Of a stretch of 61,157 bases of DNA, positions 8,550 through 52,959 are shown in pieces. The translations under genes and the position numbers were made by a program. Below the pieces are notes generated by a model. The model saw nothing but the letters and a program-made list of their open reading frames with translations. It was not told the origin of the DNA and did not search any database. Every line of letters starts with the position of its first letter. The stretch's first letter is position 1. The DNA comes from Methylotenera sp. (GTDB taxonomy: Bacteria > Pseudomonadota > Gammaproteobacteria > Burkholderiales > Methylophilaceae). The stretch lies in contig JALRGX010000095.1 in NCBI GenBank assembly GCA_023259635.1, forward strand, positions 1 to 61,157. Direction: 5' to 3'.

Positions 8550-8690
8550 GAGACCTTTATCCAAATAGGCGAGCGCAGTGAAGACAAGGCTAAAATTGAT
8601 GAAAAACCGGAGCTTATTCAATATAAATGAGGATTTTGAATCAATTTTTAACACCGTATTCACAAGCACAGTCATTTGTACAAAGGTGTC
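8550..8690. repeat. RPE-like palindromic element E1 (141 bp)
   Basis: Terminal inverted arms gagacctttatccaaat / atttgtacaaaggtgtc (14 of 17 match); internal ACAAGGC ... AACACCGT core; nested stems. Confidence 0.75.
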
Positions 8691-8698
8691 GCATAAAC

Positions 8699-8727
8699 AA
8701 TTAGGCGCCAACAAGTGGCGCCTAATT
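8699..8727. terminator. Hairpin downstream of rpe
   Basis: aattaggcgcca-acaag-tggcgcctaatt, a perfect 12-bp stem. Confidence 0.65.
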
Positions 8728-8740
8728 ATGCTTTTAATGA

Positions 8741-9460
8741 TTAAACAGTAGCAAGTGAAGCGCGCATTTCACTCACAACAGTATTGTAACGGTTAGCATC
8801 TGTATCTTTACCTGCACCAAAAATTGCTGATCCGGCAACAAAAGTATCAGCACCGGCGCGCGCGATTTCTGCAATGTTCTGTACATTCACGCCACCATCC
8901 ACCTCAAGCCAGATTTGACGGCCTGTTTTCTCATAGTAAGCATCAATGCGTGCACGGGCTTCTTTCAGCTTATCCAGTGTGCTTGGGATAAATTTCTGAC
9001 CACCAAAGCCTGGGTTCACTGACATCAGCAAAATCATATCGACTTTATCCATTACATAATCAAGGTAGCTCAACGGCGTAGCAGGGTTAAATACCAGACC
9101 GGATTTACAACCCAATTCGCGCACCAGGCTCAAACTGCGGTCAATATGCTCAGAAGCTTCCGGATGGAAAGTAATAATGTTTGCGCCCGCCTTGGCAAAA
9201 TCAGGAATAATGCGATCTACCGGTTTTACCATCAGATGTACGTCAATCAACGCACCTACTTTTTTTGATGTTTCACGAATCGCATCACATACCAATGGGC
9301 CGATAGTCAGATTAGGCACGTAGTGATTATCCATTACGTCAAAGTGCACAATATCTGTACCGGAGGTAATCACATCCTCAATCTCTTGGCCAAGTTTGGC
9401 AAAGTTTGCAGAAAGAATACTAGGGGCAATTCTAAAAGTTTTATCCATGGCTATGTCCAT
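8741..9460 (-). CDS. rpe: Ribulose-phosphate 3-epimerase (start probably at 9448)
   Basis: [36 protein letters not shown]. Confidence 0.97.
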
Positions 9461-9671
9461 CTAAAATAATTTATCTACATAAACCGTTATTTTAACCTTA
9501 TTTTTCAATAATAAGATGAAGCTTCTTGCTTAACATAAGTCTATCCCTCAAAATTACGCATGGAAAATTCATCAACATATTTCTAAAACAAATCAATATG
9601 CAGGCAAATTAGCACAATGGCAGTAAAATACTCAAATATCAAAACACCGGCAATGAACCGATAAAATTTTC

Positions 9672-10931
9672 ATGCAGTTATACGTTATAGGCGTGAACCA
9701 CACGACCGCCCCCCTTCAAATCCGTGAACACGTCGCTTTTAATAGCGACCATCTTGGCAATGCCTTGCATGAACTCACTCTTAACGGCGCAACTGAAGCA
9801 GCGATTTTATCTACCTGCAATCGCACCGAGCTTTATTGCAGCACAGATGACCCGCAAAAAGCACTCGACTGGCTATCGCAATACCACCACCTTGAAAAAG
9901 AGGCCATTGCACCTTATATATACACCCTGCCCGATGATGAGGCTGTCAAGCACGCATTCCGGGTAGCCTCCGGTCTTGATAGCATGGTATTGGGCGAACC
10001 CCAGATTCTTGGGCAATTCAAACAGTCCGTCAAAATCGCGCAGGATGCCGGCACACTGGGCACGTTGCTGCACAAGCTGTTCCAGCGTACCTTTGAAGTA
10101 GCGAAAGAAGTGCGCACCAATACCGATATTGGCGCCAATTCAATCTCCATGGCCGCTGCCGCGGTTAAGCTCGCACAACGTATTTTTGGCGACATCAGCG
10201 AACAGAAAGTATTGTTTATTGGTGCTGGCGAAATGATAGAACTTTGCGCAGATCACTTTGCCGCACAGAAACCGAAAAGCATGACGATTGCCAACCGCAC
10301 CATTGAACGCGGTTCCAATCTGGCACAAAAGATTACTGCTCAAGGTATTCAGTCGCAGGCAATCCTGCTCAACGACCTGCCAATGCACTTTGCAGAGTTT
10401 GATATTGTCGTCACTTCAACCGCAAGCCAATTGCCCATTATCGGCCTGGGTATGGTTGAAACGGCGATCAAGGCACGCCGTCACCGCCCGGTATTTATGG
10501 TAGACCTTGCAGTACCTCGCGACATCGAGCATGAAGTTGCCGAGCTGGACGATGTGTTTTTGTACACCGTAGATGACTTGGCGCAGGTAGTTTCTGACGG
10601 TATTGAGAACCGCCAGCTTGCCGCAATAGAGGCAGAAACGATTGTTGCCAATCGCGTTGCGAACTTCATGCAATGGCTCAAAAAGCGCGATGCCGTACCA
10701 ACTATCAAAGCATTACGCGACCAGGCTGAAACCATGCGCAAAGCCGAAATGGAAAAAGCGCTTAAACAGTTGCAAAAAGGTGAGAATCCGGAAAAGATCC
10801 TGGAAACTTTAAGTATCGCCCTTACCAACAAATTTTTACACGCGCCCAGCCATGCACTGAACCAGTCACATGGTGAAGAGCACGCAAAGCTTGAAGACAC
10901 ATTGAAACAACTTTACCAAATTAAAAGTTAA
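9672..10931 (+). CDS. hemA: Glutamyl-tRNA reductase
   Basis: [28 protein letters not shown]. Confidence 0.97.
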
Positions 10932-10942
10932 AGAAGCACCCT

Positions 10943-12025
10943 ATGAAACCCAGCATGATTACCAAGCTCGCCAATTTAAGCGAGCGCCTGGACGAAGTAA
11001 ACCGTCTTTTAAGCAGTGAAGATATTACTGCCAATATGGATAACTACCGCAAACTCACGCGTGAGCATGCGGAGATTACGCCTATCGTTGAGCAATACCG
11101 CACTTTTGTACAAACCGAGTCTGACATTGCCGAAGCACAGAAAATGCTCAGTGACCCTGAAATGAAAGAGTTTGCGCAGGAAGAAATTGACGCCGGCAAA
11201 GAAAAGCTGGAAACGGTTGAAGCCGACTTGCAGAAACTTTTACTGCCTAAAGACCCGAATGATGAAAAAAACATCTTTCTTGAAATTCGCGCTGGCACTG
11301 GCGGTGATGAATCGAGCTTATTCGCAGGCGATTTATTCCGCATGTACTCACGCTATGCTGAACGTCAAGGCTGGAAAGTGGAAGTCATGTCTGCCAATGA
11401 ATCCGAAGTTGGCGGTTATAAGGAAATTATCGCCAAAATTGAAGGTTATGGCGCTTATTCCAAACTTAAATTTGAATCCGGCGGCCACCGTGTACAACGT
11501 GTGCCAGACACAGAAACCCAGGGGCGCATTCACACTAGCGCCTGTACTGTAGCCGTATTGCCTGAAGCAGATGAAGTTTCTAACGTCGTAATCAACCCTG
11601 CGGACATTCGCATCGACACTTTCCGTGCCAGCGGTGCCGGCGGCCAACATATTAATAAAACCGACTCTGCAGTGCGTATTACCCACGCACCTACCGGAAT
11701 CGTGGTGGAATGCCAGGAAGGCCGAAGCCAGCACGCTAACAAAGCACAGGCGATGGCGGTATTGGCAGCACGCATCAAAGCCAAACAGGTCGATGAGCAG
11801 CAATCCAAAATTGCAAGCGAGCGTAAGAGCCTGATCGGCAGTGGCGACCGCAGTGAACGCATTCGCACCTACAACTACCCGCAAGGCCGTATTACCGACC
11901 ACCGCATTAATTTAACCTTATACAAAATTGATGCGATTACCGAAGGTGATATGGATGAGTTGATTGGCGCGTTGTCTGCAGAACATCAGGCCGACCTGCT
12001 GGCTAGCCTGGGTGAAGATAACTAA
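10943..12025 (+). CDS. prfA: Peptide chain release factor 1
   Basis: GGQ motif, PxT recognition loop (RVPDTE), hemA-prfA-prmC synteny. Confidence 0.97.
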
Positions 12026-12051
12026 TTCTCACGGCTAAAAGCCGATTCACA

Positions 12052-12927
12052 ATGCACACAATCCGCTCTGCTCTTTTGCAAGCCCAGGCGCAACTTAACA
12101 ATGCAACTGAGCTAGATGTAATTGATGCCAGATACGAATCACAGTTGCTGTTACAACACATACTGAACGCAAACCGTGCGTGGCTGATTGCGCACGAGAA
12201 TGATGTTCTGCAACCTGCCAACCAGGGCAGGTTTGCAGCTTTACTGCAACGCCGCTGTAATGGTGAACCTATGGCCTATATTCTAGGCAAGCGTGAGTTT
12301 TATGGGTTGGATCTTGCTGTAACGCCAGCAGCGCTCATCCCGAGGCCGGACACAGAAATACTGGTGGATGCTGCGCTAGAAAAGATTTCAGAAAATCAAA
12401 GCATGCAGGTACTTGATTTAGGCACTGGTACAGGGGCAATTGCACTTGCAATCGCACAGCAACGGCCACAGGCACAAGTCACCGCGGTAGATGCCTCCCA
12501 GGCCGCTTTAGACGTTGCCATCAGCAATGGCCGGCAACATAACATTGCGAATGTCCATTTCTTTCTCAGTGACTGGTTTTCCGCTTTAAGCCAGAAAAAA
12601 TTTGATGTCATCGTCAGCAACCCGCCCTATATCGAGCAAAACGATGCCCATCTATCACAAGGCGATTTGCGCTTTGAGCCCATATCCGCATTAGCTTCCG
12701 GTGAGGATGGACTTGATGACATTCGCCGCATTATTGACGATTGTTTAATCCACCTGGAACCACAGGGCTGGTTAATGCTCGAGCATGGCTATAATCAGGC
12801 CAAGCCTGTTGCTGACCTGATGGCACAGGCAGGATTGGTCGACATCGAAACCTTCAAGGATTATGGCAGCAATGACCGCGTCACGATAGGTAGGAATCCG
12901 CTCATTGTCAGCGCCCATTGGGACTAA
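12052..12927 (+). CDS. prmC: Release factor glutamine methyltransferase
   Basis: LIPRPDTE, DLGTGTG, NPPY. Confidence 0.96.
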   Translation: MHTIRSALLQAQAQLNNATELDVIDARYESQLLLQHILNANRAWLIAHENDVLQPANQGRFAALLQRRCNGEPMAYILGKREFYGLDLAVTPAALIPRPDTEILVDAALEKISENQSMQVLDLGTGTGAIALAIAQQRPQAQVTAVDASQAALDVAISNGRQHNIANVHFFLSDWFSALSQKKFDVIVSNPPYIEQNDAHLSQGDLRFEPISALASGEDGLDDIRRIIDDCLIHLEPQGWLMLEHGYNQAKPVADLMAQAGLVDIETFKDYGSNDRVTIGRNPLIVSAHWD

Positions 12928-12928
12928 T

Positions 12929-13471
12929 TTAAAACCCTGCCTGATACTGTGTTTTCAACAGCACATAGTTATTCGCCGAATACATGAAATTTGCGATCTC
13001 ATCAGCCGTTAGAGCACGTACCTTTTTTGCCGGTCGGCCTACATACAGGTAACCGCTTTCAAGCACCTTCCCTTCCGGAACCAGGCTGCCAGCCGCCAGC
13101 AGTACATGCTTCTGCACTAATGCCTTATCCATGACGATACTGCCCATACCAATCAGCACTTCATCTTCTATCGTACAGCCATGCAATATGACCGAATGGC
13201 CTATGGTTACATTGTCACCAATAATAAGCGGTGCGCCAGCCGGATCACTGCTGGACTTATGATTTACATGCAGCATGCTCAAATCCTGCACATTGGTATT
13301 CTTGCCGATGTGAATATAATTCACATCACCGCGAATCACAGCGCCAGGCCAAACAGAGCTATCCTCCCCGATTACGACATCACCGATAACCGTTGCGGCA
13401 GTATGCACATAAACGCCACTGGCAATTTGCGGAAAATGCTTCAAAAAACGTTGTATGTTTTGCGCAGGCAT
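12929..13471 (-). CDS. Gamma carbonic anhydrase family protein (YrdA-like)
   Basis: Hexapeptide repeats, RGDVN, QD, TIGH.VILHGC. Confidence 0.9.
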   Translation of the reverse strand: MPAQNIQRFLKHFPQIASGVYVHTAATVIGDVVIGEDSSVWPGAVIRGDVNYIHIGKNTNVQDLSMLHVNHKSSSDPAGAPLIIGDNVTIGHSVILHGCTIEDEVLIGMGSIVMDKALVQKHVLLAAGSLVPEGKVLESGYLYVGRPAKKVRALTADEIANFMYSANNYVLLKTQYQAGF

Positions 13472-13544
13472 TTGTTACAAAAACCTCTTTTCAAATCGCT
13501 TTTTTCTATAAACTTGTTTCTGATTGCCATAGTATAATCATATT

Positions 13545-14687
13545 ATGTCTGAAAATAACTCCGTCGGCATTGTTGCCCCACAAACTGCACACTTTAGCGA
13601 GCCGCTTACACTTAAAAGCGGCGAGGTATTGCCACAATATGACCTGGTTTATGAGACCTATGGCACGTTAAATGCTGATAAATCCAACGCTGTACTGATC
13701 TGCCATGCCTTATCCGGAAACCATCATGTTGCCGGCAAGTATAGCGCGGACGACAAATACCCTGGCTGGTGGGACAACCTGATTGGCCCGGACAAGCCAC
13801 TGGATACGAATAAGTTCTTTGTGGTCGGCCTCAACAACCTCGGCGGCTGCCATGGTTCGTCAGGCCCATCCAACATCAATCCAGCTACCGGCAAACAATG
13901 GGGCTCCGCCTTCCCGATTCTCACTGTAGAAGACTGGGTTAACTCTCAGGCACGCCTGCTTGACCATCTTGGCATTGAACAACTAGCAGCGGTGATCGGT
14001 GGCAGCCTGGGTGGCATGCAGGGTCTACAGTGGACAATCGCTCACCCTGACCGCGTGCGCCATGCATTGATTATTGCTTCTGCACCCAACCTGACCGCAC
14101 AGAACATGGCGTTCAATGAAGTTGCCCGTCAGGCGATTATTACTGATCCCGAATTCCACAATGGCGATTATTACGAACACGGTGTAGTGCCACGCCGCGG
14201 GCTCCGTATCGCACGTATGTTAGGCCATATTACCTACTTAAGCGATGATGCAATGGGAGAGAAATTCGGCCGTAAAGTTAAAGACACCATCAAATACAGT
14301 TTTGATGTTGAGTTTGAGATGGAGTCCTACTTGCGCTATCAAGGCGACAAGTTTGCTGGCTCTTTTGATGCGAACACCTATTTACGTATGACACGTGCTC
14401 TGGATTATTACGATCCTGCACTCGCATATGACGGCGATTTGAGCAAAGCCTTAAGCAAGGCTAAATCTGAATTTCTGGTAGTGTCTTTCACTAGCGACTG
14501 GCGCTTTTCCCCGGCACGCTCACGCGAAATCGTTAAAGCGCTGCTGGATAACGAAAGTACCGTCAGCTATGCAGAAGTGACTGCTGCGCACGGCCATGAT
14601 GCATTCCTAATGCCGGATAAACATTACCACGCGATTTTGCGCAGTTACTTAAGCAACATACAGATTGGCAGCAACCATGCAAAATAA
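13545..14687 (+). CDS. metX: Homoserine O-acyltransferase (MetX family)
   Basis: CHALSG, GGSLGG, GHDAFL; followed by metW. Confidence 0.95.
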
Positions 14688-15282
14688 TGTTGATATCACA
14701 AATTTCAGGCAAGATTTTGCAATTATTGCAAATTGGGTTAAGTTTGGTTCTAAAGTGCTGGATTTGGGCTGCGGTAATGGCGAATTACTAAATTTTCTGC
14801 GCAGTTCACTTGAAATTAAAGGCTACGGAGTAGAAAAAGATGACGCCAACGTGCTGGCCTGTGTGAAAAATGGCACTAATGTAATCCAGATGGATCTTGA
14901 AGACGGCCTGTCCGGTTTTGAGGATCAGTCTTTCAATACTGTAATTCTCTCGCAAACCCTGCAGGCGATGCATCACACCGAAGCAATTGTGCTGGAAATG
15001 CTGCGTGTAGGCCAGGAAATCATTGTCACTTTTCCCAACTTTGGTTACTGGCGCAACCGCATACAAATCACAATGGGGCAGATGCCGGTCTCAAGAACAT
15101 TACCTTACCAGTGGTACGATACGCCCAATGTGCATCTCTGTACTATCAGTGATTTCGATATATTCTGCAAAAAACACAATATTGATATTCTGGAACGCAG
15201 GGTCATTACCGATGGCAAAGAAATCAACCTGATGCCCAATCTGCTTGGCAACCTTGCCATGTACCGCCTGAAAACCAAGTAA
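14677..15282 (+). CDS. metW: Methionine biosynthesis protein MetW
   Basis: [31 protein letters not shown]. Confidence 0.95.
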
Positions 15283-15287
15283 CAGTT

Positions 15288-16541
15288 TTGCAGTCAATCC
15301 CGCAACCCAGCATCCGGCAATCGATCATGAGCAAAAAGATGCTCATCTGCGTATTTACCGGCTTCAGCTCGGGCCTGCCGTTATTTATACTGATTAGCTT
15401 ATTGCCGGCCTGGCTACGTTCCGAGGGCGTCAATCTTAAGGCGATTGGCCTGTTCGCCTTCATTAACCTGCCCTTTACCTGGAAATTTTTGTGGGCACCT
15501 CTATTTGACCGTTACACTCCACCCTTGGGCAGAAGGCGCGGATGGCTAATCATCACACAGCTTTCATTGCTCATTTCCATTCCCATATTTGGCAGCTTCA
15601 AGCCCGGGCTGGATATCTGGACAATCGCCTACCTGGCTACCGTCGTTGCATTTTTCAGCGCCTGCCAGGACATTGTGATAGATGCATATCGCCGCGAACT
15701 CTTGCTAGACGCAGAACTGGGCTTGGGCAATGCCGTACATGTAAACGCCTACAAAGTGGCCGGACTCATACCAGGCTCACTATCGTTGATTCTGGCTGAT
15801 CACATGGACTGGAGCAGCGTCTTCATCATTACAGCACTTTTCATGCTGCCTGGACTGATAATGACCCTGCTTATATCAGAACCCTTGCTGCTTAGCGGCA
15901 CACCCAAAACTCTGCGCGCAGCCGTAGTGGAACCGTTTAAAGAATTCATCAGCCGCAACGGTATCAAATCGGCACTGCTTATTTTAGCGTTTATCTTTCT
16001 ATACAAACTGGGCGACAGCATGGCAACGGCTTTAGCAACACCGTTCTACCTTGATATGGGTTACAGCAAGACTGAAATTGGCCTGATAGCAAAAAACGCC
16101 GGCTTATGGCCCAGCGTGATTGGGGGCTTATTAGGTGGTGCATGGATGGTTAAACTCGGCATTAACCGCTCACTCTGGATATTTGGTGCCGTACAGATGA
16201 TCGCCATTCTGGGGTTTGCCTGGCTGTCAACAGCATCACATAATATACCGCTATTAGGCTTGGTGATCGGCATTGAGGCTTTTGGCGTCGGTTTAGGAAC
16301 CGCAGCTTTTGTGGCTTACATCGCGCACACCACGCACCCGCTTTACACGGCAACACAGTTCGCACTTTTTACCAGCCTTGCCGCCGTACCGCGCACATTT
16401 GCCAATGCCGCAACTGGCTACATGGTAGAAAACCTGGGTTGGCTCAAATTTTTCATACTATGCTTTGTACTGGCAATACCTGGAATGCTGTTATTAATCA
16501 AAATCGCGCCATGGAATGAAACCTCAACAAAACAGAATTAA
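15288..16541 (+). CDS. ampG: Muropeptide MFS permease
   Basis: GFSSGLP, KFLWAPLFD, GRRRGW, QDIVIDAYR, YTATQFAL. Confidence 0.93.
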   Translation: MQSIPQPSIRQSIMSKKMLICVFTGFSSGLPLFILISLLPAWLRSEGVNLKAIGLFAFINLPFTWKFLWAPLFDRYTPPLGRRRGWLIITQLSLLISIPIFGSFKPGLDIWTIAYLATVVAFFSACQDIVIDAYRRELLLDAELGLGNAVHVNAYKVAGLIPGSLSLILADHMDWSSVFIITALFMLPGLIMTLLISEPLLLSGTPKTLRAAVVEPFKEFISRNGIKSALLILAFIFLYKLGDSMATALATPFYLDMGYSKTEIGLIAKNAGLWPSVIGGLLGGAWMVKLGINRSLWIFGAVQMIAILGFAWLSTASHNIPLLGLVIGIEAFGVGLGTAAFVAYIAHTTHPLYTATQFALFTSLAAVPRTFANAATGYMVENLGWLKFFILCFVLAIPGMLLLIKIAPWNETSTKQN

Positions 16542-16605
16542 AGCCAAGGCACTGTAAGTTTTGGCAAATTAGCGCGACGAATCTCAACACTCAAGGAGAT
16601 TCACC

Positions 16606-17376: not shown

Positions 17377-17401
17377 AATCAAATAAAAAGACACGCAAAG
17401 T

Positions 17402-25254: not shown

Positions 25255-25288
25255 AAACTTTAGGCCGTACGCATACGGCCTAAAGTTT
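25255..25288 (+). terminator. Strong hairpin between mreB and mreC
   Basis: aaactttaggccgta-cgca-tacggcctaaagttt, a perfect 15-bp stem. Confidence 0.65.
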
Positions 25289-29852: not shown

Positions 29853-29976
29853 CTGGCACTTCTATAAATACTTTCTTTGGGTACATTACAGGTTACAACA
29901 CCCCAGACTCTGCATTTCCAGAAGCGTCATAACCTGTATCAAAGATGTATAGATACATTGAAATAGAGGTAATTGA

Positions 29977-38401: not shown

Positions 38402-38402
38402 C

Positions 38403-39604: not shown

Positions 39605-42600
39605 TTATTTATCACCCGAAGATTTCCAATACTTGATCTTGCGTTTTGAGCTAATTAAAGGCTTAACCTTCTGTGGGTCATACTGTGAGCTCGTTGCCGA
39701 CACGCCACTTCCTGTGCCAGATCCAGATCCTGTTCCCGCTTTATCCGGCGCAGCAATAACCACTGTAGTGATGACGCCATTAATTGGCACCGTAGCCATA
39801 ACAGGTGAAACCGGCAAGCCACCGCCCAAGAATATTGAAGATCGGTCACCACCACATGATCCGTCCACGCCTATAGCACCGGAACCATTGAATAAATTCA
39901 CCCAGTAGCCTCGAGCTTCACCTAATACAGTGCTACAACTACCATCAGTTGTCGGAACAGGTCGATTGGTACCAAAAGTAACCATGCCACTCACGATAAG
40001 CGCCGTACCAACTGCCTGCTCACCCCGGCCATTCTGGTTTAGGTTCATAAACCAGCCCTTCATACCCGAACTAGGCAATACTTTTTCTGAACTACATGTT
40101 GATGAAGATGTGTAATCAAACATTGAGCCGCTATCATCCAGATTATATGCAGCCGTATCACTGATATCATCCATAAACACGTAAAAGCGATTAACAACAT
40201 CTTGGTATGGATAGTCACTTATTAATGGATGTTCGCGATCACCTGAACCGAGTGCCAGATATACTTTACCGCCACTAGCCTGCAAAAGTGCAGGAGGGAA
40301 TAGAAATTTACGGCCACCTCCATTAGTATATGCAATTCTATTACTTGCCCATGAACCGCTACTTAGCACAGCTTTCGTAGCAGGATCAATAAAATTAATA
40401 CGATAAATATTGCCGCCCGTATCTACAGCGTAGGCAAAGTCCACGTAAGTGTCATTATCAACATCAATGAGTGAAATATCTGCCGCAACGCTACGCAAAG
40501 TATCAAACTTTGCCAACACTGCACCAGTCTCTCCATCCAATACATATATCCCTTTACCTTTGGCGCCGCTGCAGGCTGGGGTAGTAGTATTTTCATCTTC
40601 ACATTTATCATAGCCGCCACCTACAACCAATACTGGAGTAGATGTTGAATAACCTTTAATAAATGCAACATTGGGCGTTGACCAAGTCTGGCCGATTTCT
40701 GGATGGCCGCCAATACAGCCAGCATCATCATTCAGGTTCGGGCAGCCAATTTTCCACTTGATAGCAGGTGTGTTAGCGTCAGTTACATCCAATGCGTATA
40801 TCATTCTACCGCCACGTCGCATAGTAGGATAAATCGTCACACTGGAGCTATCGGCTTCCTGGTATAAGCCCACCGTACCATCCCAGAAATAATCTTTAGG
40901 TATTGGCGTCGGTATTAACGAAGTCGATACATTCGGATAACTGATCTTGGGTTGATTATCTTGTAACCTTTGCATACGCGCATTGAACTCATAAGGCAGA
41001 AACGCCCATTTTTCTTTACCGGTATTCGCATCTACAGCCCTGAACATACCGTCATTTGCACCATAATACACCACCACATTCCCATCACCGTAGTTAACCG
41101 GAAATGGCCGTGAATGCACCACATCTCCATGTATCGAGGCGCGTGTTTCCTTGTCACCGATAGCGTTTTCTTTAGCATAGCCCAACGCCAAGTCTGAGCC
41201 TACATCGTAGCCTAACACCCACTGTTTCAGGTTGGGTACAATAGTTGGCAATGTAGCAAGCGTTTCAAGACGTTCCATAGTTGTTGATGCCACACTTGAT
41301 GTAGCAAAAATGTTACGATTCACATCCCAAGTTGGAGAGATATCGGTAGCTGTGGGATTATTCCCCTTACGAATTACCTCAGCAACTGATCCAGCCTCAA
41401 CGCGCGGACCATCAGGCAGATCAGAATACTTGCCAACACCAATATTTGTACAGGCATTCAGGGTGCTTTCCGGGACCACATAATCCTTCCAGTATTCCCC
41501 GGAATCTGAAGTCCAGTAACTGGTAGCACAATCCTTAATAAAGCCGGTCTGCGTATTTACAGCCACATTCCCATTCAGATCACCTAGCTCGATATTACCC
41601 GCATCATCAATCAACTGGTAACGTTTAAGATTACCAAACCAGCGCGGTTTTGCTTGCGAATCCGGGCGGAACATGGCAATAAATACCTGATTCTCATTTT
41701 GTGTACGGTTAGTCGCGTTCACCGGCAAGCTGGCAGATGCAAATGTGGAGTTCACTGAAGTAATCTCGGCAAAAATTTCCTGCATTGCATTAAAAATTTT
41801 GGCCTCATCTGTTGCGCTATAATATTGACCGTTACCGAACTTGGCCATATTCCTCAACAAGGCTGACTGGTCTAGACTAGGTTGATTCTTATATACATCG
41901 ATTGTATAAGTATAAACATTCTGCTTTCCTGTAGTTTCATTGACATCGGTCTTATACAAGAAATCAGTAAATTCATCGGCAAAACGGTTTGCTGCATTTG
42001 CAGACGGTTCGGTGTATGTTGCGGTGACTGATGTACACTGCTGAACAATTCTCTGGTTACCAGTGCAGGAAGATTTAACACATTGATACAATGTTGTAGG
42101 AGAATCTCCAGGCTTTGCAGTATTACATGCATCAAGGTTAGTGTAGCATGAGCCTGTATCTGTCCATGTACCGGCACAGGAATAATTGGCAACAGGATAT
42201 TCTATAATCGTAGTGAGCGGATTCGCAGCATCATTCAGATACTTAAGGGCTTCACGCATATCTAAGTTTGAGTTCTCGCTAGCAGGGAACCCATTACCAA
42301 TAAAAATAATATAATTCTTGCCGCAGGTTGTCTGTGTTGGCGAGTTATATCTGAGCCCATTTGGGAATTCATCAGAAAAGTCATCATAAGCATTTCTATC
42401 TCGCTTAAGAGAACCATCCGGATTAATATCTACATTATTTGAACCCCAGTATCTTCTGCTGAAGATGCGAACACCGTTAAAATCAGGCGCTACTGCAGGC
42501 CTGCTATTTGCCGTAGCATGCGCCACATCGGTATACCCGCCAAAGTATTTGAAAGCATCAAACAGGGCTGCTGAATACTGCACTGAGGATGCAGCTGTTT

Positions 42601-43072
42601 CTGTATTAAAATTCAGGATGATTTTATCTAACTCGGCAATAAATGCAGCCTTATTTGTCGCGCTCATTTCCTTGATTGCTGAACGCATATAACCGCCATC
42701 GCGCGGCGCATTGGAATTATTGAACATCATCAAGCCAAGGTTAACCTTGCCATTGCCTGAAGCGTCAACCGGCAAAGAATTAACTACTTTGCGCAATGAC
42801 TTCAGTTCGTAATAACCCTGTTTATTGCAATCGTTACCACAAGCTACTGGAGGATTGGCATCTGTAGGCCAGCCCTGGTTCGCAGCCGACCAGTTCGAGC
42901 TATTATCAAGTATAACCAGCACATTGGGATTATCAGCACCGCCAGATGAGTCCCCTATAAAAATATCAATATCTTCTGCATAAGCAGGCAATATGGTACC
43001 AGCCGCAGCTAAACAGACAGATACGATAAAAAATAATGATCTAAAATATGTTTTCATAATGATTCCTGTCAC
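39605..43072 (-). CDS. pilY1: Type IV pilus tip adhesin PilY1/PilC
   Basis: Signal peptide, vWA-like ILDNSSN, W.GNLKRY, GDVVHSRP, GANDGM, GQTWSTP, Ca-binding loop DVDNDTYVD. Confidence 0.92.
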   Translation of the reverse strand: MTGIIMKTYFRSLFFIVSVCLAAAGTILPAYAEDIDIFIGDSSGGADNPNVLVILDNSSNWSAANQGWPTDANPPVACGNDCNKQGYYELKSLRKVVNSLPVDASGNGKVNLGLMMFNNSNAPRDGGYMRSAIKEMSATNKAAFIAELDKIILNFNTETAASSVQYSAALFDAFKYFGGYTDVAHATANSRPAVAPDFNGVRIFSRRYWGSNNVDINPDGSLKRDRNAYDDFSDEFPNGLRYNSPTQTTCGKNYIIFIGNGFPASENSNLDMREALKYLNDAANPLTTIIEYPVANYSCAGTWTDTGSCYTNLDACNTAKPGDSPTTLYQCVKSSCTGNQRIVQQCTSVTATYTEPSANAANRFADEFTDFLYKTDVNETTGKQNVYTYTIDVYKNQPSLDQSALLRNMAKFGNGQYYSATDEAKIFNAMQEIFAEITSVNSTFASASLPVNATNRTQNENQVFIAMFRPDSQAKPRWFGNLKRYQLIDDAGNIELGDLNGNVAVNTQTGFIKDCATSYWTSDSGEYWKDYVVPESTLNACTNIGVGKYSDLPDGPRVEAGSVAEVIRKGNNPTATDISPTWDVNRNIFATSSVASTTMERLETLATLPTIVPNLKQWVLGYDVGSDLALGYAKENAIGDKETRASIHGDVVHSRPFPVNYGDGNVVVYYGANDGMFRAVDANTGKEKWAFLPYEFNARMQRLQDNQPKISYPNVSTSLIPTPIPKDYFWDGTVGLYQEADSSSVTIYPTMRRGGRMIYALDVTDANTPAIKWKIGCPNLNDDAGCIGGHPEIGQTWSTPNVAFIKGYSTSTPVLVVGGGYDKCEDENTTTPACSGAKGKGIYVLDGETGAVLAKFDTLRSVAADISLIDVDNDTYVDFAYAVDTGGNIYRINFIDPATKAVLSSGSWASNRIAYTNGGGRKFLFPPALLQASGGKVYLALGSGDREHPLISDYPYQDVVNRFYVFMDDISDTAAYNLDDSGSMFDYTSSSTCSSEKVLPSSGMKGWFMNLNQNGRGEQAVGTALIVSGMVTFGTNRPVPTTDGSCSTVLGEARGYWVNLFNGSGAIGVDGSCGGDRSSIFLGGGLPVSPVMATVPINGVITTVVIAAPDKAGTGSGSGTGSGVSATSSQYDPQKVKPLISSKRKIKYWKSSGDK

Positions 43073-45700: not shown

Positions 45701-45709
45701 GACATTGAA

Positions 45710-46141: not shown

Positions 46142-46210
46142 ATCGATTTTCAGACCCTTTTAAACGTCATATATCATGCATGCGGGCATTTACAATGTCT
46201 ATTGGTAACT

Positions 46211-46241
46211 GACAGTCGGTAAAATTTCCTCAATGAGCGGT
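46211..46241 (-). promoter_or_regulatory. AlgR/LytTR-like direct repeat upstream of the minor-pilin operon
   Basis: Minus strand ACCGCTCATT-N11-ACCGACTGTC (21-bp period), resembling the AlgR box ACCGTTCGTC. Confidence 0.5.
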
Positions 46242-46396
46242 CACAGCGCTGCGCCCAGCTTTTTTTGCAAAACACATTATTAATTCCTAAATCTAAAATT
46301 ATGTAGAAAAGTGAATTACATTAAAAAATGCTAGAATGCTTAGATTGTTCTCAATTTGGCTAATTGTTTTATTAAAAAATTACCACATCGCCACCT

Positions 46397-46525
46397 ATGC
46401 AAAAACTCACTAAGAAAATCATACTGTTACTGGCTGCCTGCTTTGTACTTAACGCTTGCGGCACCAAGGGCCCGCTATACATTCCTGAGCAGCAATATCC
46501 TCAGCCTACTGAGAAAACCCAATAA
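46397..46525 (+). CDS. lptM: Small lipoprotein of the LptM/YifL/LppL family, 42 aa
   Basis: Not in the ORF track. MQKLTKKIILLLAACFVLNACGTKGPLYIP..., lipobox plus the CGxKGPLYxP signature, directly upstream of lysA. Confidence 0.9.
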   Translation: MQKLTKKIILLLAACFVLNACGTKGPLYIPEQQYPQPTEKTQ

Positions 46526-46560
46526 TCTAGCCCCACCTTTTAATTTATTAAGTCATTACC

Positions 46561-47805
46561 GTGAACGCATTTAATTTCAAAAATAATACGCTACATGCTG
46601 AAGATGTAGCCCTTAACAAAATCGCAGAAAACTTTGGCACACCTTGCTACGTGTATTCCAAATCGGCACTCACCAAGGCATTTGAACGCTTCAACGCCGG
46701 ATTTAAAGATACAAACCACCTGGTATGCTTTGCGGTTAAATCCAACCCCAGCCTTGCTATCCTGAACCTGTTCGCAAAACTGGGGGCTGGCTTTGATATT
46801 GTTTCAGGTGGCGAACTGGCCAGAGTAATTGCTGCTGGCGGTGACCCATCAAAAGTAGTATTTTCCGGCGTAGGCAAAACCGCCGATGAAATGCGCGCCG
46901 CTCTGGAAGCAGGTATTTTTTGCTTTAATGTAGAGTCTGCCAGCGAACTCACACGCCTGAACGATATTGCCGGTTACATGGGTAAAATCGCCCCGGTTTC
47001 ACTACGCGTAAACCCGAATGTGGATGCAAAAACACACCCTTACATTTCTACCGGCCTGAAAAACAATAAATTCGGCGTCGCTTATGAAGATGCACTGGAT
47101 ATTTACCTGCAGGCAGCAGCGATGCCCAACATTGCAATCCATGGCGTAGACTGCCATATCGGCTCACAGATCACCGAATTATCACCATTTATGGATGCAT
47201 TCGACCGCGTACTGGCGCTGGTAGATGCGCTAGAGCAGAACAACATCCGCATTCAGCACATCGACCTGGGCGGCGGTATCGGCATCTGCTACAGCGACGA
47301 AACGCCTCCTGAATTCAGCGACTATGCAAAAGCAATGTTAGCCAAGCTGGGCAAACGTGACATCAAACTGGTATTTGAACCAGGCCGCGCACTGGTAGGC
47401 AATGCTGGGGTATTACTCACTAAAGTTGAATATCTTAAACATACCGAGACCAAGAATTTTGCAATTGTTGATGCCGCCATGAATGACCTGATGCGCCCAG
47501 CGTTATACGATGCTTACCATGCGATTGAAGCTGTGCAGCCACGCGATGCAAATACCCGCAATTACGAAATTGTAGGCCCGGTATGCGAAAGCGGCGACTT
47601 CTTGGGTCATGACCGGGAGTTGGCTTTAGCTGAAGGCGATCTACTCGCAGTAATGTCTGCAGGCGCTTATGGCATGAGCATGGCCAGCAATTACAACACT
47701 CGCCCGCGCGCTGCAGAAATCATGGTCGACGGCGACAAATTAACTGTGATTCGTCAACGTGAAAAAGTGCAGGACTTATTTGCACTGGAAACTATCATCA
47801 AATAA
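46561..47805 (+). CDS. lysA: Diaminopimelate decarboxylase (GTG start)
   Basis: AVKSN, HIGSQ, EPGR, GPVCESGD, SNYNTRPR. Confidence 0.97.
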   Translation: MNAFNFKNNTLHAEDVALNKIAENFGTPCYVYSKSALTKAFERFNAGFKDTNHLVCFAVKSNPSLAILNLFAKLGAGFDIVSGGELARVIAAGGDPSKVVFSGVGKTADEMRAALEAGIFCFNVESASELTRLNDIAGYMGKIAPVSLRVNPNVDAKTHPYISTGLKNNKFGVAYEDALDIYLQAAAMPNIAIHGVDCHIGSQITELSPFMDAFDRVLALVDALEQNNIRIQHIDLGGGIGICYSDETPPEFSDYAKAMLAKLGKRDIKLVFEPGRALVGNAGVLLTKVEYLKHTETKNFAIVDAAMNDLMRPALYDAYHAIEAVQPRDANTRNYEIVGPVCESGDFLGHDRELALAEGDLLAVMSAGAYGMSMASNYNTRPRAAEIMVDGDKLTVIRQREKVQDLFALETIIK

Positions 47806-47819
47806 TTACATAACTAGGC

Positions 47820-47856
47820 AATAAAAAAGCGAAGACCAATCTTCGCTTTTTTTATT
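47820..47856. terminator. Bidirectional intrinsic terminator (lysA / purU)
   Basis: aataaaaaagcgaaga-ccaa-tcttcgctttttttatt. Confidence 0.85.
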
Positions 47857-47870
47857 ACTCAACATCACCC

Positions 47871-47997
47871 AATTCCAATTTCAGTTCGAAGGTGAAACAA
47901 GGCAACGACGAGTACGTGACGCAGGCAGTACAAATAGTACGACAAGGAACGTACGAGGAAGTTAACGCCGTGTCACCGATGAAATGAATTTGGAATT
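47871..47997. repeat. RPE-like palindromic element E2 (127 bp)
   Basis: Arms aattccaatttcagttc / gaaatgaatttggaatt (15 of 17 match); ACAAGGC, CAGTAC-aaata-GTAC, AACGCCGT; right end overlaps the purU stop. Confidence 0.75.
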
Positions 47998-48850
47998 AAT
48001 CGAAAATTACGGTTTTGTTCGCATAAAGCAGAATACGGTTTTCAATATGCCAGCGTACCGCTTTTGACAACACTACTCGCTCCAGGTCACGTCCTTTTTG
48101 AATCAGGTCTTCCACTTGGTCGCGGTGTGAAATGCGCTCGATACCCTGCTCAATGATCGGGCCTTCATCCAGCACCTCGGTCACATAATGACTGGTGGCA
48201 CCAATCAGTTTCACACCGCGTTCAAACGCACGGTGATATGGACGGGCGCCGATAAATGCCGGCAGGAATGAGTGATGAATATTGATGATACGCTGCGGGT
48301 AGCGTGCCACAAAATCCGGTGACAGGATTTGCATGTAGCGCGCCAGCACAATCAGGTCAATATTGTACTCATCAAACAATCTGAACTGCGCCGCTTCAGC
48401 TTCTGCCTTATTTTCTTTACTGATAGAAATGTAATGAAAATCCACGCCATAGAACTGCACCAGCTTTTCGGTATCACGGTGATTACTGATTACCAGCGGA
48501 ATCTCGCAGGCGAGTTCACCGCTTTTATGCCTGTGCAACAAATCCGCCAGGCAGTGGTCATATTGTGACACCATGATTGCAACTCGCGCCTTGGTTTGGG
48601 ATAACTTTAGCTGCCATTGCATGCTGAATTTGTTGGCAATAACTGCAAATGCCTGATTAAAGCCGCTTACATCCAGATTAAAACCGGCCAAATCCCACTC
48701 CACGCGCATGAGGAATAGATTATTTTCTGCATCCTGATGCTGGTCTGCGTGTAAAATGTTGGCATTGTGCTGATGTAGAAAATCAGCAATTGCCGCCACA
48801 ATGCCTCTGGCATCCGGGCAGGTAATCAGTAAGGTTGCGGTGTTTTTCAT
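47996..48850 (-). CDS. purU: Formyltetrahydrofolate deformylase
   Basis: ACT domain (CPD.RGIVA), LARYMQIL, NIHHSFLP, LDEGPII. Confidence 0.96.
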   Translation of the reverse strand: MKNTATLLITCPDARGIVAAIADFLHQHNANILHADQHQDAENNLFLMRVEWDLAGFNLDVSGFNQAFAVIANKFSMQWQLKLSQTKARVAIMVSQYDHCLADLLHRHKSGELACEIPLVISNHRDTEKLVQFYGVDFHYISISKENKAEAEAAQFRLFDEYNIDLIVLARYMQILSPDFVARYPQRIINIHHSFLPAFIGARPYHRAFERGVKLIGATSHYVTEVLDEGPIIEQGIERISHRDQVEDLIQKGRDLERVVLSKAVRWHIENRILLYANKTVIFD

Positions 48851-48876
48851 AGTGAGACTTTTTTCATAGTGAGACT
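48843..48876. repeat. Exact 17-bp tandem duplication spanning the purU start
   Basis: tttttcatagtgagact repeated twice. Confidence 0.9.
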
Positions 48877-49004
48877 TTATTAATCATTAATTAAAACTTA
48901 TGAGATTATACCCGATGCGCCTGCCACCTGAAAAATCAGTTAACTCTAAGGCGCATGATTACGCATTCAATTAAAGCAAAGCTACAAATAAAAGATACAT
49001 ACAA

Positions 49005-49994
49005 ATGAACAAAGATACGAGCATTGTACTTGCTAACCCTCGCGGATTCTGCGCCGGGGTAGATCGCGCGATTATCATCGTGGAACAGGCATTAGAGAAA
49101 TTCGGAGCGCCGATTTATGTACGCCATGAAGTAGTCCACAATAAATTTGTTGTAGATCAGCTCCGTGCCAAAGGCGCGATTTTTGTTGAGGAGCTGGATG
49201 AGATTCCAAGCGGCAGTACAGTTATTTTCAGTGCACACGGCGTTTCAAAAGCAATACGCACAGAAGCCGATGCGCGCGGCCTGACCACTTTCGACGCCAC
49301 TTGCCCGCTGGTAACCAAAGTGCATATCGAAGTTGAAAAAATGCGCAAAGCCGGTTTGGAAATCATTATGATTGGCCACAAAGGCCACCCTGAGGTTGAA
49401 GGCACGATGGGGCAGATTGAACAAGCGCAAGCCGATGGAAGTAATAAGGCAGCCGGAATGTATCTGGTGGAAACACCTGAAGATGTAACAATCCTACAGG
49501 TGCAGAACCCTGACCAGCTAGCCTATGTCACACAAACCACGCTATCACTGGATGATGCCGCCCTGGTAGTTGAAGCGCTGCGAAAACGCTTCCCCAATAT
49601 CAGAGCCCCCAAAAGCGATAGCATCTGCTATGCCACGCAGAACCGTCAGGATGCAGTCAAAATCATGGCAAAAGATTGCGACTTGGTCATTATTGTTGGC
49701 TCGCCTAATAGCTCCAACTCTAACCGTTTGCGTGAAGTTGCCCAAAATCAGGGCGTAGAAGCTTATATGGTAGATAACGCCAGCTACCTTAAAGCGGAAT
49801 GGCTGATAAATAAACAGAAAATCGGTGTTTCCGCAGGCGCTTCTGCTCCTGAAGTGCTGGTGCAGGAAGTTATTACAAAATTGCAGGAACTAGGTGCGAA
49901 TAATGTAGAGGAACTGCATGGCGTTGTAGAGCATGTAGTGTTCCAACTGCCTAAAAACCTGACTGCTGCAATTGCTAAACAGCAAATCTCGTAA
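49005..49994 (+). CDS. ispH: 4-hydroxy-3-methylbut-2-enyl diphosphate reductase
   Basis: [35 protein letters not shown]. Confidence 0.97.
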
Positions 49995-50014
49995 TGTTTT
50001 GCATGCTGAATAAA

Positions 50015-50090
50015 ACCGGTGTAGCTCAGTTGGTAGAGCGTTTCATTCGTAATGAAAAGGTCTTGGGTTCGATTCTCTTCTCCGGCACCA
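50015..50090 (+). tRNA. tRNA-Thr(CGT), structurally degenerate and possibly a pseudogene
   Basis: 76-nt cloverleaf with D-arm GCTC-AGTTGGTA-GAGC, anticodon CGT, TTCGA and encoded CCA; mismatches A1:C72, T6:T67, T49:T65, T50:T64. Confidence 0.85.
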
Positions 50091-50103
50091 CTACAAAGTT
50101 ATA

Positions 50104-50568
50104 ATGAAAAGCTACAAAACTCCCATTTCCGCCCTGGTATTGATCCACACGCCAGATTTACAGGTGCTGATTATGGAGCGTGCCGATAAGGCAGGTTTCT
50201 GGCAATCTGTCACCGGCAGCTTAGAAGGAGAGGAAACTCCGCTACAGGCCGCAATCCGTGAAGTACGTGAGGAAACCGGCCTGGATGCAACACAATATAA
50301 TTTACAGGATTGGAACGCATCCAATGTATATGAGATTTACCCGCACTGGCGTCACCGCTATGCACCTGGCGTGACTGAAAATCGCGAGCACCTGTTTGGC
50401 CTGACCTTGCCAGGCCCGCTACCTGTAAAACTCGCGCCGGACGAACATGTGCGCTATGAATGGGTAGATTGGCGCGAAGCGGCAAAACGGGTTTTTTCGT
50501 GGACAAATGTCGACGCCCTGAAAAGATTAGGTGAACGACATCAATTAACGTTAGGAAACATGGAATAA
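50104..50568 (+). CDS. nudB: Dihydroneopterin triphosphate diphosphatase
   Basis: YKTPISALV, FWQSVTGS, Nudix box, W.HRYAPGVT.N.EH. Confidence 0.93.
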   Translation: MKSYKTPISALVLIHTPDLQVLIMERADKAGFWQSVTGSLEGEETPLQAAIREVREETGLDATQYNLQDWNASNVYEIYPHWRHRYAPGVTENREHLFGLTLPGPLPVKLAPDEHVRYEWVDWREAAKRVFSWTNVDALKRLGERHQLTLGNME

Positions 50569-50694
50569 GTCGCTGAGCGAGATAAAGTGCAAGGCGCACG
50601 GAACGGGAGCCGAGATAGTATTTAGCATACAGCGAGGTTGCGAGTACCGCGCAACGCAGCAATTTGCTCGCGTAGGCACTTATTTTGCGTTTCC
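50554..50694. repeat. RPE-like palindromic element E3 (141 bp), supplying the nudB 3' end
   Basis: Arms ggaaacatggaataagt / acttattttgcgtttcc; GCAAGGC, TAGTAT-ttagc-ATAC, CGAGTACC, AACGCAGC; GTTA on both flanks. Confidence 0.78.
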
Positions 50695-50747
50695 GTTATA
50701 AAATAAGCATTTTTAACACTTACGCTTTATTCATCACTTAAAAATAT

Positions 50748-51845
50748 ATGCAGATTTCACCGATTAAATTTGAGAAGTTTCAAGCAGCAGAAGATGCTGA
50801 ATGTCAGCGCCGCATTATTGCCGCTAAAGAAAAACTCGGCAAACGCCTGGTGATTCTAGGTCACCACTACCAGCATGAGAGCGTTTACCGCCATGCGGAC
50901 TACACCGGCGACTCACTCAAACTTTCGCGCCATGCCGCCGAGGTGGATGCCGAATATATCGTATTCCTGGGTGTGCATTTCATGGCGGAAGTTGCCGACA
51001 TTCTGAGCCGCCCTGGACAGATCGCGATCCTTCCTGACCTCGCCGCCGGTTGCTCGATGGCGGATATGGCGAACCTTGCCAAAGTCGAGCGCAGCTACCG
51101 CGAGCTGAATAAAGTTCTGAATTTTGACGAAAAAATCACACCGATCACCTACATCAATTCAGCCGCCGACCTGAAAGCATTCTGCGGCGAGCATGGCGGC
51201 ATTGTTTGCACGAGCACCAACGCGCCAAAGATTCTGGAATGGGGCTTTGCACAGCGTGAAAAAGTATTGTTCTTCCCCGACCAGAACCTGGGACGTTGGA
51301 GCGGTTACAAAATGGGTATTCCACTTGAGCAGATGCCGGTATGGGATCCTGACCTGCCTATGGGTGGCTTGACAGAAGAACAAATCAGGAACGCAAAAAT
51401 CCTGTTATGGAAAGGTCACTGTGCTGTACACCAGATGTTCCGTTTGCAGAACATCACCCAGTTCCGCAATGAACATCCGGATGGTTTTGTGATCTCGCAT
51501 CCCGAAGCCCCTTTCGAAGTGTGCCAGCATTCTGACTATGTAGGCTCTACTGAGTACATACTTAAGACCGTGAGCGAAGCACCGCCAAATACCAAGTGGC
51601 TGGTTGGCACGGAACTCAACCTGGTAAACCGCCTGGCTGAACAAATGAAGCCACAAGGAAAACTGGTGCAGTTCATGAGCCACGTCGTTTGCGAATGCTC
51701 CACCATGGCCAGAATTGACCCGCAACATCTGGCGTGGGTGCTGGAAAACCTGGCCGAGGGCAATGTCGTTAACCAGATCAAAGTGCCTGAGCATGAAGCC
51801 AAATTGGCCAAACTCACACTAGATCGCATGCTGGCGGCATCATAA
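50748..51845 (+). CDS. nadA: Quinolinate synthase, Bacillus-like subfamily
   Basis: GHHYQ, TGDSL, GVHFMAE, GCSMA, WKGHC.VH, CECSTM.RID. Confidence 0.94.
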   Translation: MQISPIKFEKFQAAEDAECQRRIIAAKEKLGKRLVILGHHYQHESVYRHADYTGDSLKLSRHAAEVDAEYIVFLGVHFMAEVADILSRPGQIAILPDLAAGCSMADMANLAKVERSYRELNKVLNFDEKITPITYINSAADLKAFCGEHGGIVCTSTNAPKILEWGFAQREKVLFFPDQNLGRWSGYKMGIPLEQMPVWDPDLPMGGLTEEQIRNAKILLWKGHCAVHQMFRLQNITQFRNEHPDGFVISHPEAPFEVCQHSDYVGSTEYILKTVSEAPPNTKWLVGTELNLVNRLAEQMKPQGKLVQFMSHVVCECSTMARIDPQHLAWVLENLAEGNVVNQIKVPEHEAKLAKLTLDRMLAAS

Positions 51846-52273
51846 TGACTTGCACGCTATGCCAGCCCTGCCCACACCCGATTCTCTGGCAGGATGACTT
51901 CTGCCGTGTCGTGCTGTTAAATGATGCTGATTACCCGGCATATTGCCGGATAGAACTGCTGGCACATATCAAGGAAATGACCGATCTGGTACCGGTCGAA
52001 CGTGCGCGCATGATGAAAACCGTTTTTGCAGTAGAACTTACGCTCAGGGAAATGTTTAACCCTGACAAAATCAACTTGGCCAGCCTCGGCAACAAAACCC
52101 CGCATATCCACTGGCATGTGATTCCACGCTTTACTAATGACAGACACTTTCCTAATTCACATTGGGGTGAAGCGGTGCGGGCGAGCAACCCGTCAGCACT
52201 TGATGCCGCGAGCATTGAACTGCTGGCACACAAAATAAACGCGCATATTACATGCGCGCTTAACACAGATTAG
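51845..52273 (+). CDS. HIT family protein
   Basis: CxxC, KINLASLGN, HIHWHVIPR. Confidence 0.9.
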   Translation: MTCTLCQPCPHPILWQDDFCRVVLLNDADYPAYCRIELLAHIKEMTDLVPVERARMMKTVFAVELTLREMFNPDKINLASLGNKTPHIHWHVIPRFTNDRHFPNSHWGEAVRASNPSALDAASIELLAHKINAHITCALNTD

Positions 52274-52353
52274 AGTCCTGCAGTTTCTTAAGAACCCATC
52301 CTTAAAAAACTGGCCTAAACAGCTACACTAGACAACTACACTAGGTGACCACA

Positions 52354-52668
52354 TTAAGCAACCACAAGCCGCTCAACGATTTTGCCGTTTTGCAGATGGC
52401 TTTCAATGATCTCATCGATATCTTCATTATCGACAAAGGCATACCAAACCGCTTGCGGGTAAATGACTAACAGCGGCCCCTCACCGCAACGGTCAAAACA
52501 ACCGGCACGGTTAACACGCACCTTACCTTTGCCATTCAGCTTAAGTTTTTTTACCTGCGCCTTCATGTAATCGAATGCCGCTCCTGCGCCCTTATCCATG
52601 CAACAGGCGGAGCCGTCTTCACGCTGATTCAGGCAGAAAAATACGTGATGCTCGAAGTAGTTTGTCAT
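52354..52668 (-). CDS. Thioredoxin-like (2Fe-2S) ferredoxin
   Basis: From MTNYFEHHVFFC: C..CC, GCFDRC, GP..VIYP..VWY; start corrected from the ORF track. Confidence 0.9.
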   Translation of the reverse strand: MTNYFEHHVFFCLNQREDGSACCMDKGAGAAFDYMKAQVKKLKLNGKGKVRVNRAGCFDRCGEGPLLVIYPQAVWYAFVDNEDIDEIIESHLQNGKIVERLVVA

Positions 52669-52745
52669 AAGGTTCTCACAATAATCTTTATCAACATCAT
52701 TTATTAAATTATCTGCGTGGACAGAAATCCACACACCCTGACAGG

Positions 52746-52809
52746 CTGGATTGCCGCGCTTCGCTCGCAATGACGTCATTGCGAGGCCACACAGGCCGTG
52801 GCAATACAG
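52746..52809. repeat. CGTC-type REP inverted dimer
   Basis: ctggattgcc...ggcaatacag outer arms around the perfect 22-bp palindrome ctcgcaatgacgtcattgcgag (52764-52785). Confidence 0.75.
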
Positions 52810-52858
52810 TGCTGCAGGCGTCATTACAAATTAATAGGTATTCGAATACAAACAATAC

Positions 52859-52959
52859 AATTTTCTCAAAATCTAAAGAGTCAAGACGGCTAGGTGAAAA
52901 CAGTACGTATAATACGGCGAACCGAAGCCAACGCAGGATATTTAGATTTTCAGAAAATT
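52859..52959. repeat. RPE-like palindromic element E4 (101 bp)
   Basis: Arms aattttctcaaaatctaaa / tttagattttcagaaaatt (18 of 19 match); TCAAGAC, CAGTAC-gtata-ATAC, AACGCAGG; right end overlaps the stop of the tonB-like gene. Confidence 0.75.

Follow-up and report, generated by a model that had tools for sequence, protein, structure and literature searches.

The window analysed here, the 61,157-nucleotide stretch at positions 1 to 61,157 of contig JALRGX010000095.1 (Methylotenera sp., assembly GCA_023259635.1), carries four fold-back elements, E1 to E4, in which one strand-specific hairpin core sits within unrelated arms. The elements themselves are transposable elements of the miniature inverted-repeat type (MITEs), a kind that is already known, and their core unites repeat families that bear separate names. 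It is the core of the Correia and ERIC repeats, a point that the original prediction, made from the sequence alone, had missed, and on sequence comparison these two repeats and the elements described here likely form one family. Movement of the elements described here is very probably explained by trans-acting enzymes of the IS5 family of insertion sequences (ISs) that use the outer ~15 bp. The account of the whole that we favour on balance is that the core rides as cargo in differing shells moved by such transposases, and that it would have been kept since its plus strand folds, most likely as DNA, helping an element of 100-145 bp to spread.

All four elements lie where they had been predicted, fold better than shuffled sequences and differ in their arms. 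E1 (8550..8690, plus strand, 141 bp, shell type C) has a long ERIC-type core at 8585..8656 (+), in which an outer motif, a variable stem, a purine-rich loop, an apical stem and a 5-nt loop follow one another. E2 (47871..47997, +, 127 bp) is a single copy with a Correia-type apex and a core at 47898..47970 (+), and E3 (50554..50694, +) is a 141-bp MITE of shell type A, with IS5-subgroup-like ends, whose core at 50590..50659 (+) also occurs in shell B copies with unrelated arms. E4 (52859..52959, +), an old element of 101 bp, contains a short Correia-type core at 52882..52936 (+). Folded as plus-strand RNA, E1 to E4 reach z-scores of -3.09, -5.85, -3.49 and -4.64, respectively (200 shuffles each). 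Their outer 17 bases pair without gaps at 14, 15, 13 and 16 positions in the same order, the full imperfect arms measure 23-36 bases, and between elements the arms agree at only 2-7 of 17 bases. The motif order CAAG(G/A)C ... AAC(G/A)C(C/A)G and the apical hairpin sequences read as predicted in all four. The two short motifs alone are unspecific, with 50 matches in the 2.2-Mb genome, many of them without stems; when stems are required as well, 11 distinct genome sites are found and none in either of two Markov controls. Rfam contains no family that matches E1, E2, E3 or E4, and their 14 stop-free frames have no protein family match except one at E 0.43.

The unity of the core is captured by two covariance models, of the kind that the original prediction had proposed. 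The training set of R1 consisted of 27 gap-free short cores, chosen out of 66 to stay below 70% identity in the free columns, none of them from this genome; that of R2 consisted of 24 long cores of the ERIC type and related to it, none from the window, one being an E3-like copy from this genome and one a congener copy. R1 scores E4 at 53.1 bits (E 1e-10), E2 at 27.8 and E3 at 19.1, on the plus strand only, and by itself misses E1 and the E. coli ERIC; R2 scores E1 at 68.1 bits (E 9e-19), E2 at 36.5, E3 at 19.6 and E4 at 18, all on the plus strand, the next best match standing at 9. Together the models recover E1 to E4 and copies across the phylum, R1 matching 16 and R2 61 of 150 Pseudomonadota genomes, part of which had supplied training sequences. 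The covariation score of the short cores is 0.527, versus 0.158 after shuffling and at most 0.175 after sliding of the gap-free alignment, and that of the long cores is 0.728 versus 0.233 shuffled, with a structure derived from the same alignment; both tests ignore the relatedness of the sequences. One distant family (L232-L234, L236, L243-L246, L251 and L252) differs in the sequence of the apical stem and keeps the pairing, which amounts to covariation at positions that are fixed in the training set. The predicted picture of a conserved, strand-specific core with covarying stems in unrelated arms is borne out, with many further copies in the genome and the phylum.

Mismatches within the variable stems also distinguish the two strands. 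Read on the plus strand, G.A outnumbers C.T by 37:12 and G.T outnumbers A.C by 40:12 in a model-free count over 49 of 76 elements (those paired at 10 or more of 16 positions; the count excludes two hot-spot positions), and the corresponding ratios are 86:22 and 112:43 on the model alignment, which itself leans to G.T. A loop with C-AA-G opposite C-GCA-G repeats along the stem in both directions. The core has likely been selected for folding on one DNA strand; by the general stabilities of mismatches, the high share of G.A leans to DNA.

The same core recurs in the genome under different ends. About 56 matches are related to E3. Shell A and shell B copies agree at 66 of 72 bases of the core as against 14 of 36 and 16 of 35 arm bases, while copies within one shell average 84% identity. 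The E1 family has four copies. The arms of E2 and E4 are single-copy, an nhmmer search from E2 alone recovered no family, and the short-core set comprises 19 genome matches at E below 0.005, mostly with private arms. E1 and E3 are members of moderately young families, and E2 and E4 are relics of greater age. REP-type cargo is found in shells A, B and C as well, and these shells also occur with a deleted core, as in a 76-bp core-less shell B derivative at 29854..29929 with an exact 4-bp duplication; CGTC-type REP units number 50 in the genome, some of them within these three shells. A back-to-back pair of such units lies at 52746-52809, 50 bases left of E4, and overlaps the predicted start of the ferredoxin open reading frame (ORF). 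Longer copies of shells A and B (200-360 bp; for example G000 C11:32197-32397, C53:7346-7707 and C156:11678-11925) hold an extra module of ~60 nt and nested pieces between arm and core. Elements of two families stand in tandem and nested at one stop codon, in an order that differs between close relatives (L023:6500-6760, L022:2172-2330 and G000 C21:1058-1257).

That the elements are MITEs is clearest at E3. Its site is empty in the congener G018, where the intergenic region measures 57 bp versus 202 bp here, which resolves into a 141-bp element and an exact 4-bp target duplication (left copy 50550..50553, right copy 50695..50698). Exact 4-bp duplications flank 19 of 40 shells (two of the 40 being overlapping calls of one element), versus 2.1 expected from flank swapping. 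E1, E2 and E4 themselves show no target duplication in their flanks; the sister copy of E1 on contig C84 has an exact one of 4 bp. E1 is absent from the corresponding intergenic region in the congeners G017 and G018, where the insertion junction could not be resolved, and E2 is missing in G018 and represented in G017 by its right end alone. The elements are short (101-141 bp) and non-coding, with terminal inverted repeats (13-16 of 17 bases paired), dispersed copies and, at E3, a duplication. The original prediction had set them apart from classical MITEs; the empty site of E3, the target duplications at the shells and the IS5-family-like ends weaken it on this point.

The ends can be traced to ISs of the IS5 family with varying precision. 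In a congener, an IS5-family element of 1337 bp ends in sequences like those of shell B and is flanked by an exact duplication of 4 bp. Among 73 related IS loci examined, 33 have resolved ends, of which 21 agree with shell B at no fewer than 12 of 16 bases, the best at 15. Shell-A-like ends flank three 1.2-kb IS5-subgroup elements with exact 4-bp duplications, and the ends of E. coli IS5 match shell A at 9-12 of 16 bases; shell C ends flank IS5-like remnants of ~660 bp in N. gonorrhoeae. In the distant genomes G131 and G119, core-bearing copies that are 98-99% identical and flanked by TA duplications share their ends with an 843-bp element in G159 that carries a DDE transposase frame, and core-bearing copies in G076 have other ends and 3-bp duplications. 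One core thus rides shells with 2-, 3- and 4-bp duplications. R2 finds it in none of 89 IS loci, nor in 8 further ones (97 in total), and does find it in 2 of the 3 MITE-size loci examined together with those 8; by this comparison, the interior is not that of a deleted IS.

Searches for mobilising genes close to the elements gave little. Nothing points to the dedicated mobilising enzyme that the original prediction had envisaged: no transposase occurs among 77 neighbouring proteins (of 124 listed), and no other mobilising gene among these or among 44 of 51 in a second set, save one phage integrase. The shell-C motif occurs at 44 loci in viral contigs, none with a partner end, and in plasmids as chance matches only; viral contigs contain no IS5 relatives of L396, and NF033580 has no matches in G131 and G119. 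The IS630 transposase PF13358, considered as a partner and rejected, occurs in 2 of 41 congeners, and no Correia-like ends were found at those loci.

With respect to genes, three of the four elements overlap stop codons, as had been noted. The right arm of E2 overlaps that of purU (47996-47998, -) and the right arm of E4 that of a TonB-family gene (52958-52960, -), and E3 was inserted just 5' of the original nudB stop codon and replaced it with a new one at 50566-50568 (+). E1 runs antisense to both of the genes that it separates, rpe (stop 8741) and gph (start 8524); in the congener G015 this rpe-gph junction also holds a long-core element, with different arms and placed on the stop codon of rpe (L031:1370-1484). 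The original prediction held that all four share one orientation regardless of gene strand. They are indeed alike, which has a chance of 1 in 8, but E3 alone is sense with respect to the adjacent read-through gene, E1, E2 and E4 being antisense to theirs, so that orientation is not independent of the genes.

The old short-core copies make this relation plain. Among the 19 in this genome, 13 versus 0 touch a stop codon by the right arm and are antisense to the gene concerned, and in five congeners the same rule holds for 24 versus 2 of 30 loci (the loci for 30 of 40 matches, many of them orthologous and for that reason not independent). Under a 160-bp rule, antisense to sense is 14:1 for short cores and 17:8 for long cores. 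The bias is not general: in named genomes the count is 36 versus 33, orientation is mixed in E. coli, and long cores elsewhere are antisense in 5 versus sense in 11 cases, all these orientation counts being based on simple, rough ORF calls. Mixed orientation in other taxa implies that selection for one strand has no fixed relation to host mRNA. A scan around E4 revealed neither a promoter nor a terminator consensus.

The replication strand, which the original prediction had named as a variable to examine, may account for part of the pattern in one genome. Of the 16 cores in the complete genome G017 that could be assigned, 15 are on the C-rich strand and not on the template of the lagging strand; the ratio here is a weak 37:19, and no replication-strand pattern is evident in N. 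gonorrhoeae. A replication-strand rule was rejected as the main cause in this genome, where copies at lagging-strand genes mostly follow the transcript rule (4 antisense on the G-rich versus 1 sense on the C-rich strand). Replication strand may add to the transcript rule, as in G017.

Once at a junction, the core can persist for long periods. Copies are retained at the edd-eda, iscS-iscU, TonB-ferredoxin, aspS and groEL junctions and, in another family, at pstB-phoU, and core elements stand at the same TonB-family stop codon as E4 in G017, G018, G015 and G005. Over 11 comparisons to this genome, cores are 64-94% and arms 60-88% identical versus 30-47% at four-fold sites of the next gene, synonymous change being close to saturation; the pstB set shows a small contrast (72-83% versus 67-71% at four-fold sites). 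Retained sites were found by model, which leaves decayed copies uncounted.

These observations can be assembled into a sequence of steps. A transposase would read only the outer ~15 bp, and the core would extrude or fold into a long, imperfectly paired hairpin along which purine-rich 2x3 loops recur and, in that form, might join the two ends or bind a host protein. Elements appear to insert at AT-rich targets of 2-4 bp, often stop codons; the copies that last in the genus would mostly be those with the foldable strand outside the read-through mRNA, and some would have turned into fixed parts of operon junctions. Young active families have different ends, an intact core and either gene orientation, and selection on the element's own spread is their simplest reading; combined with a DDE enzyme, this points to folded DNA. 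Several findings nevertheless weigh against a core kept as a folded-DNA aid to IS5-driven transposition. The end match is strong for shell B and only partial for shells A and C, and the shell-A pattern used on viral contigs was designed from this genome's own variants. E2 and E4 ends have no convincing match among 28 congener IS loci, five congeners contain no IS-sized shell-A pair, and the G076 family has no IS partner, NF033580 matching in G076 only and with ends unlike those of its MITE. Neither this draft genome nor G017, a complete congener, yielded a PF01609 transposase, so the shell families may be inactive at present. Shells can exist without the core, because the same shells carry REP cargo; the mismatch bias fits RNA as well as DNA; and DDE transposases are not known to need a folded strand. 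Finally, that copies have been kept at operon junctions for so long points to a role at the level of the host, for which aid to transposition does not account.

It is this retention that gives weight to a competing account in which the elements move as MITEs and the core is selected as RNA, either as a stop-codon hairpin that sets mRNA processing or stability or as an antisense RNA, hosts tolerating or using it. Reported precedents are ERIC with RNase E and Correia with RNase III. For ERIC, an orientation-dependent, ribosome-exposed cleavage by RNase E is reported in the available part of PMC2229807. Selection as RNA would suit both the single orientation of old short-core copies at stop codons (13 versus 0, 24 versus 2, 14:1) and the excess of core identity at operon junctions (64-94% versus 30-47% at four-fold sites). 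However, the mRNA at these stop codons is the minus strand, on which the favoured mismatches turn into C.U and A.C instead of G.U; younger copies show the orientation bias weakly (17:8), it is absent elsewhere (36:33, 5 versus 11, mixed in E. coli), and E4 lacks a promoter or terminator consensus. For the copies retained at junctions, a use by the host as RNA is the better explanation, but it fits the strand bias poorly, and we regard it as possible but rather doubtful. A self-cleaving or catalytic RNA, which the original prediction had raised as a ribozyme-like fold, is scarcely credible: conserved purine-rich internal loops and covarying stems would suit it, yet the core is a single unbranched hairpin without an Rfam match, the duplications are of DDE type, the core usually lies off the transcribed strand here, and nothing else points to such a fold.

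Two further explanations do without selection as RNA. The core could be a REP-like unit that moves on its own, its folded single-stranded DNA being recognised by an HUH-type or other enzyme, and that acquired IS ends later; the original prediction had pointed to a mobilising enzyme that recognises folded ssDNA or RNA. The one-strand structure with fixed loops and free stems, the CGTC-type REP hairpins in the same shells and the 15 of 16 G017 cores on the C-rich strand are compatible with it, but the 2-, 3- and 4-bp duplications follow the shell and not the core, core-less shells resemble internal deletions and not empty targets, no mobile-element enzyme save the phage integrase occurs among the 77 and 44 neighbouring proteins, and the replication bias is weak here (37:19) and not evident in N. 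gonorrhoeae; this makes a mobile core improbable. Alternatively, the core may have no function, an old MITE lineage having swapped ends while gene conversion and template-switch correction of palindromes mimicked conservation and compensation. Related sequences can indeed pass shuffle tests without structure, loci chosen by motif or model favour intact copies, and E4 and its G018 orthologue have drifted from the consensus at different positions. Palindrome correction, though, would erase the internal loops, where conservation is highest, and would give no excess of G.A relative to C.T on a single strand, and the arms too are kept at orthologous sites (60-88% identity), so that absence of function seems very improbable.

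The window also contains a tRNA gene at 50015-50087 (anticodon CGT by Rfam alignment), three ORFs with no NCBIfam match at 1e-8 (39605-43072, 1155 aa; 59373-60095, 240 aa; 51845-52273, 142 aa), and short near-perfect palindromes without a core at 25255-25288 and 59288-59329, which are probably terminators.

The combination of a shared core under one-strand structural selection with shells drawn from several IS groups reverses the usual picture of MITEs, in which ends are conserved and the interior is free. Very young families were found together with a matching IS5-family transposase gene, which makes the role of the core directly assayable, and R1 and R2 allow the family to be found across the phylum. 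Correia and ERIC have been studied for more than 30 years as separate families. How they move is called an open question in the accessible part of PMC2229807, and the families are treated separately in the available portions of PMC2229807, PMC2267715, PMC10969869, PMC3184786, PMC3733652 and bioRxiv 10.1101/2024.01.18.576219; no paper stating a core shared by Correia, ERIC and RPE was found in a search whose reach did not extend to the primary literature on RPE, on Correia promoters and on the ERIC repeats of Yersinia.

The closest relative of E2 and E4 is a repeat of ~105 bp in N. gonorrhoeae, which we take to be the Correia element from its sequence. It has TA ends and the complete motif order, and at 31-36 places it is 96% identical (27/28) to the 28-nt apex of E2; in length, in its TA ends and in the number of its copies it agrees with the account of the Correia element given in PMC2229807. 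The ~105-bp form of Correia (NEMIS) has the same short core of outer motif, variable stem, 2x3 loop, apical stem and 5-nt loop, and R1 scores it at 74 bits, compared with 53 bits for E4. It differs in having its own ends and a TA duplication, whereas the arms of E2 and E4 are unrelated to these ends and E2 has an extra stem segment, so the two are not Correia members despite the common core. The full short-core pattern occurs at 126 or more loci with many unrelated arms, the genera among the matches listed including Neisseria, Aquitalea, Deefgea, Methylobacillus, Halothiobacillus, Avibacterium, Cardiobacterium and Azonexus; sets dominated by Neisseria show no evident gene-orientation or replication bias. 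The record NZ_CP119140.1 (L001, 2.17 Mb), labelled a plasmid, is evidently an N. gonorrhoeae chromosome.

ERIC (or IRU), the 127-bp enterobacterial repeat, shares the long core of E1. The E. coli element at aceF-lpd has the outer motifs and an E1-type apex, and two 20-nt strings within it are listed together with the word "ERIC" for 272 papers. A single pattern derived from E1 picks up elements of both the ERIC and the E1 type, in 13 of 401 genomes, with 0 in the control; a distant blastn search of E1 against 5426 E. coli genomes returned no ERIC, and the link is visible only by pattern and model. The two differ in arms and stems, ERIC having TA ends and the E1 family a 4-bp duplication and IS5-like ends, with 141 bp in E1. 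RPE-1 resembles the elements in size and fold as far as the accessible text of PMC2229807 describes it. The original prediction had likened E3 to it; E3 is not scored by the RPE1 hidden Markov model TIGR01045, but the sole TIGR01045 match in 301 genomes is a core-bearing element, at 22-23.9 bits (E 3e-5), below the 30-bit cut-off. In-frame insertion into coding sequence, as in RPE-1, is rare here, and any link through the core appears weak at the sequence level. Two core elements lie within long ORFs by simple ORF calls (G000 C130:37270-37366 and C65:22094-22190) and are possible in-frame, RPE-like insertions.

With CGTC-type REPs, as presented in the available part of PMC3733652, the elements have in common palindromic cargo in the same shells, and they differ in sequence and size. 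They also depart from REP/HUH-type units in their duplications and in the lack of any sign of a core-associated tyrosine transposase among the neighbouring proteins, to which that search was confined, no genome-wide search for PF01797 having been made. With IS5-family ISs and their MITEs they share the terminal ~15 bp and duplications of 2-4 bp. A wider synthesis, which we offer tentatively and consider possible though less than probable, would place Correia, ERIC, probably RPE-1 and dozens of unnamed Pseudomonadota repeats in one superfamily: an ancient strand-specific hairpin with purine-rich loops, selected for itself and binding a putative host or mobile-element protein, that may have recruited unrelated IS ends as interchangeable vehicles and become domesticated at the stop codons of housekeeping operons.

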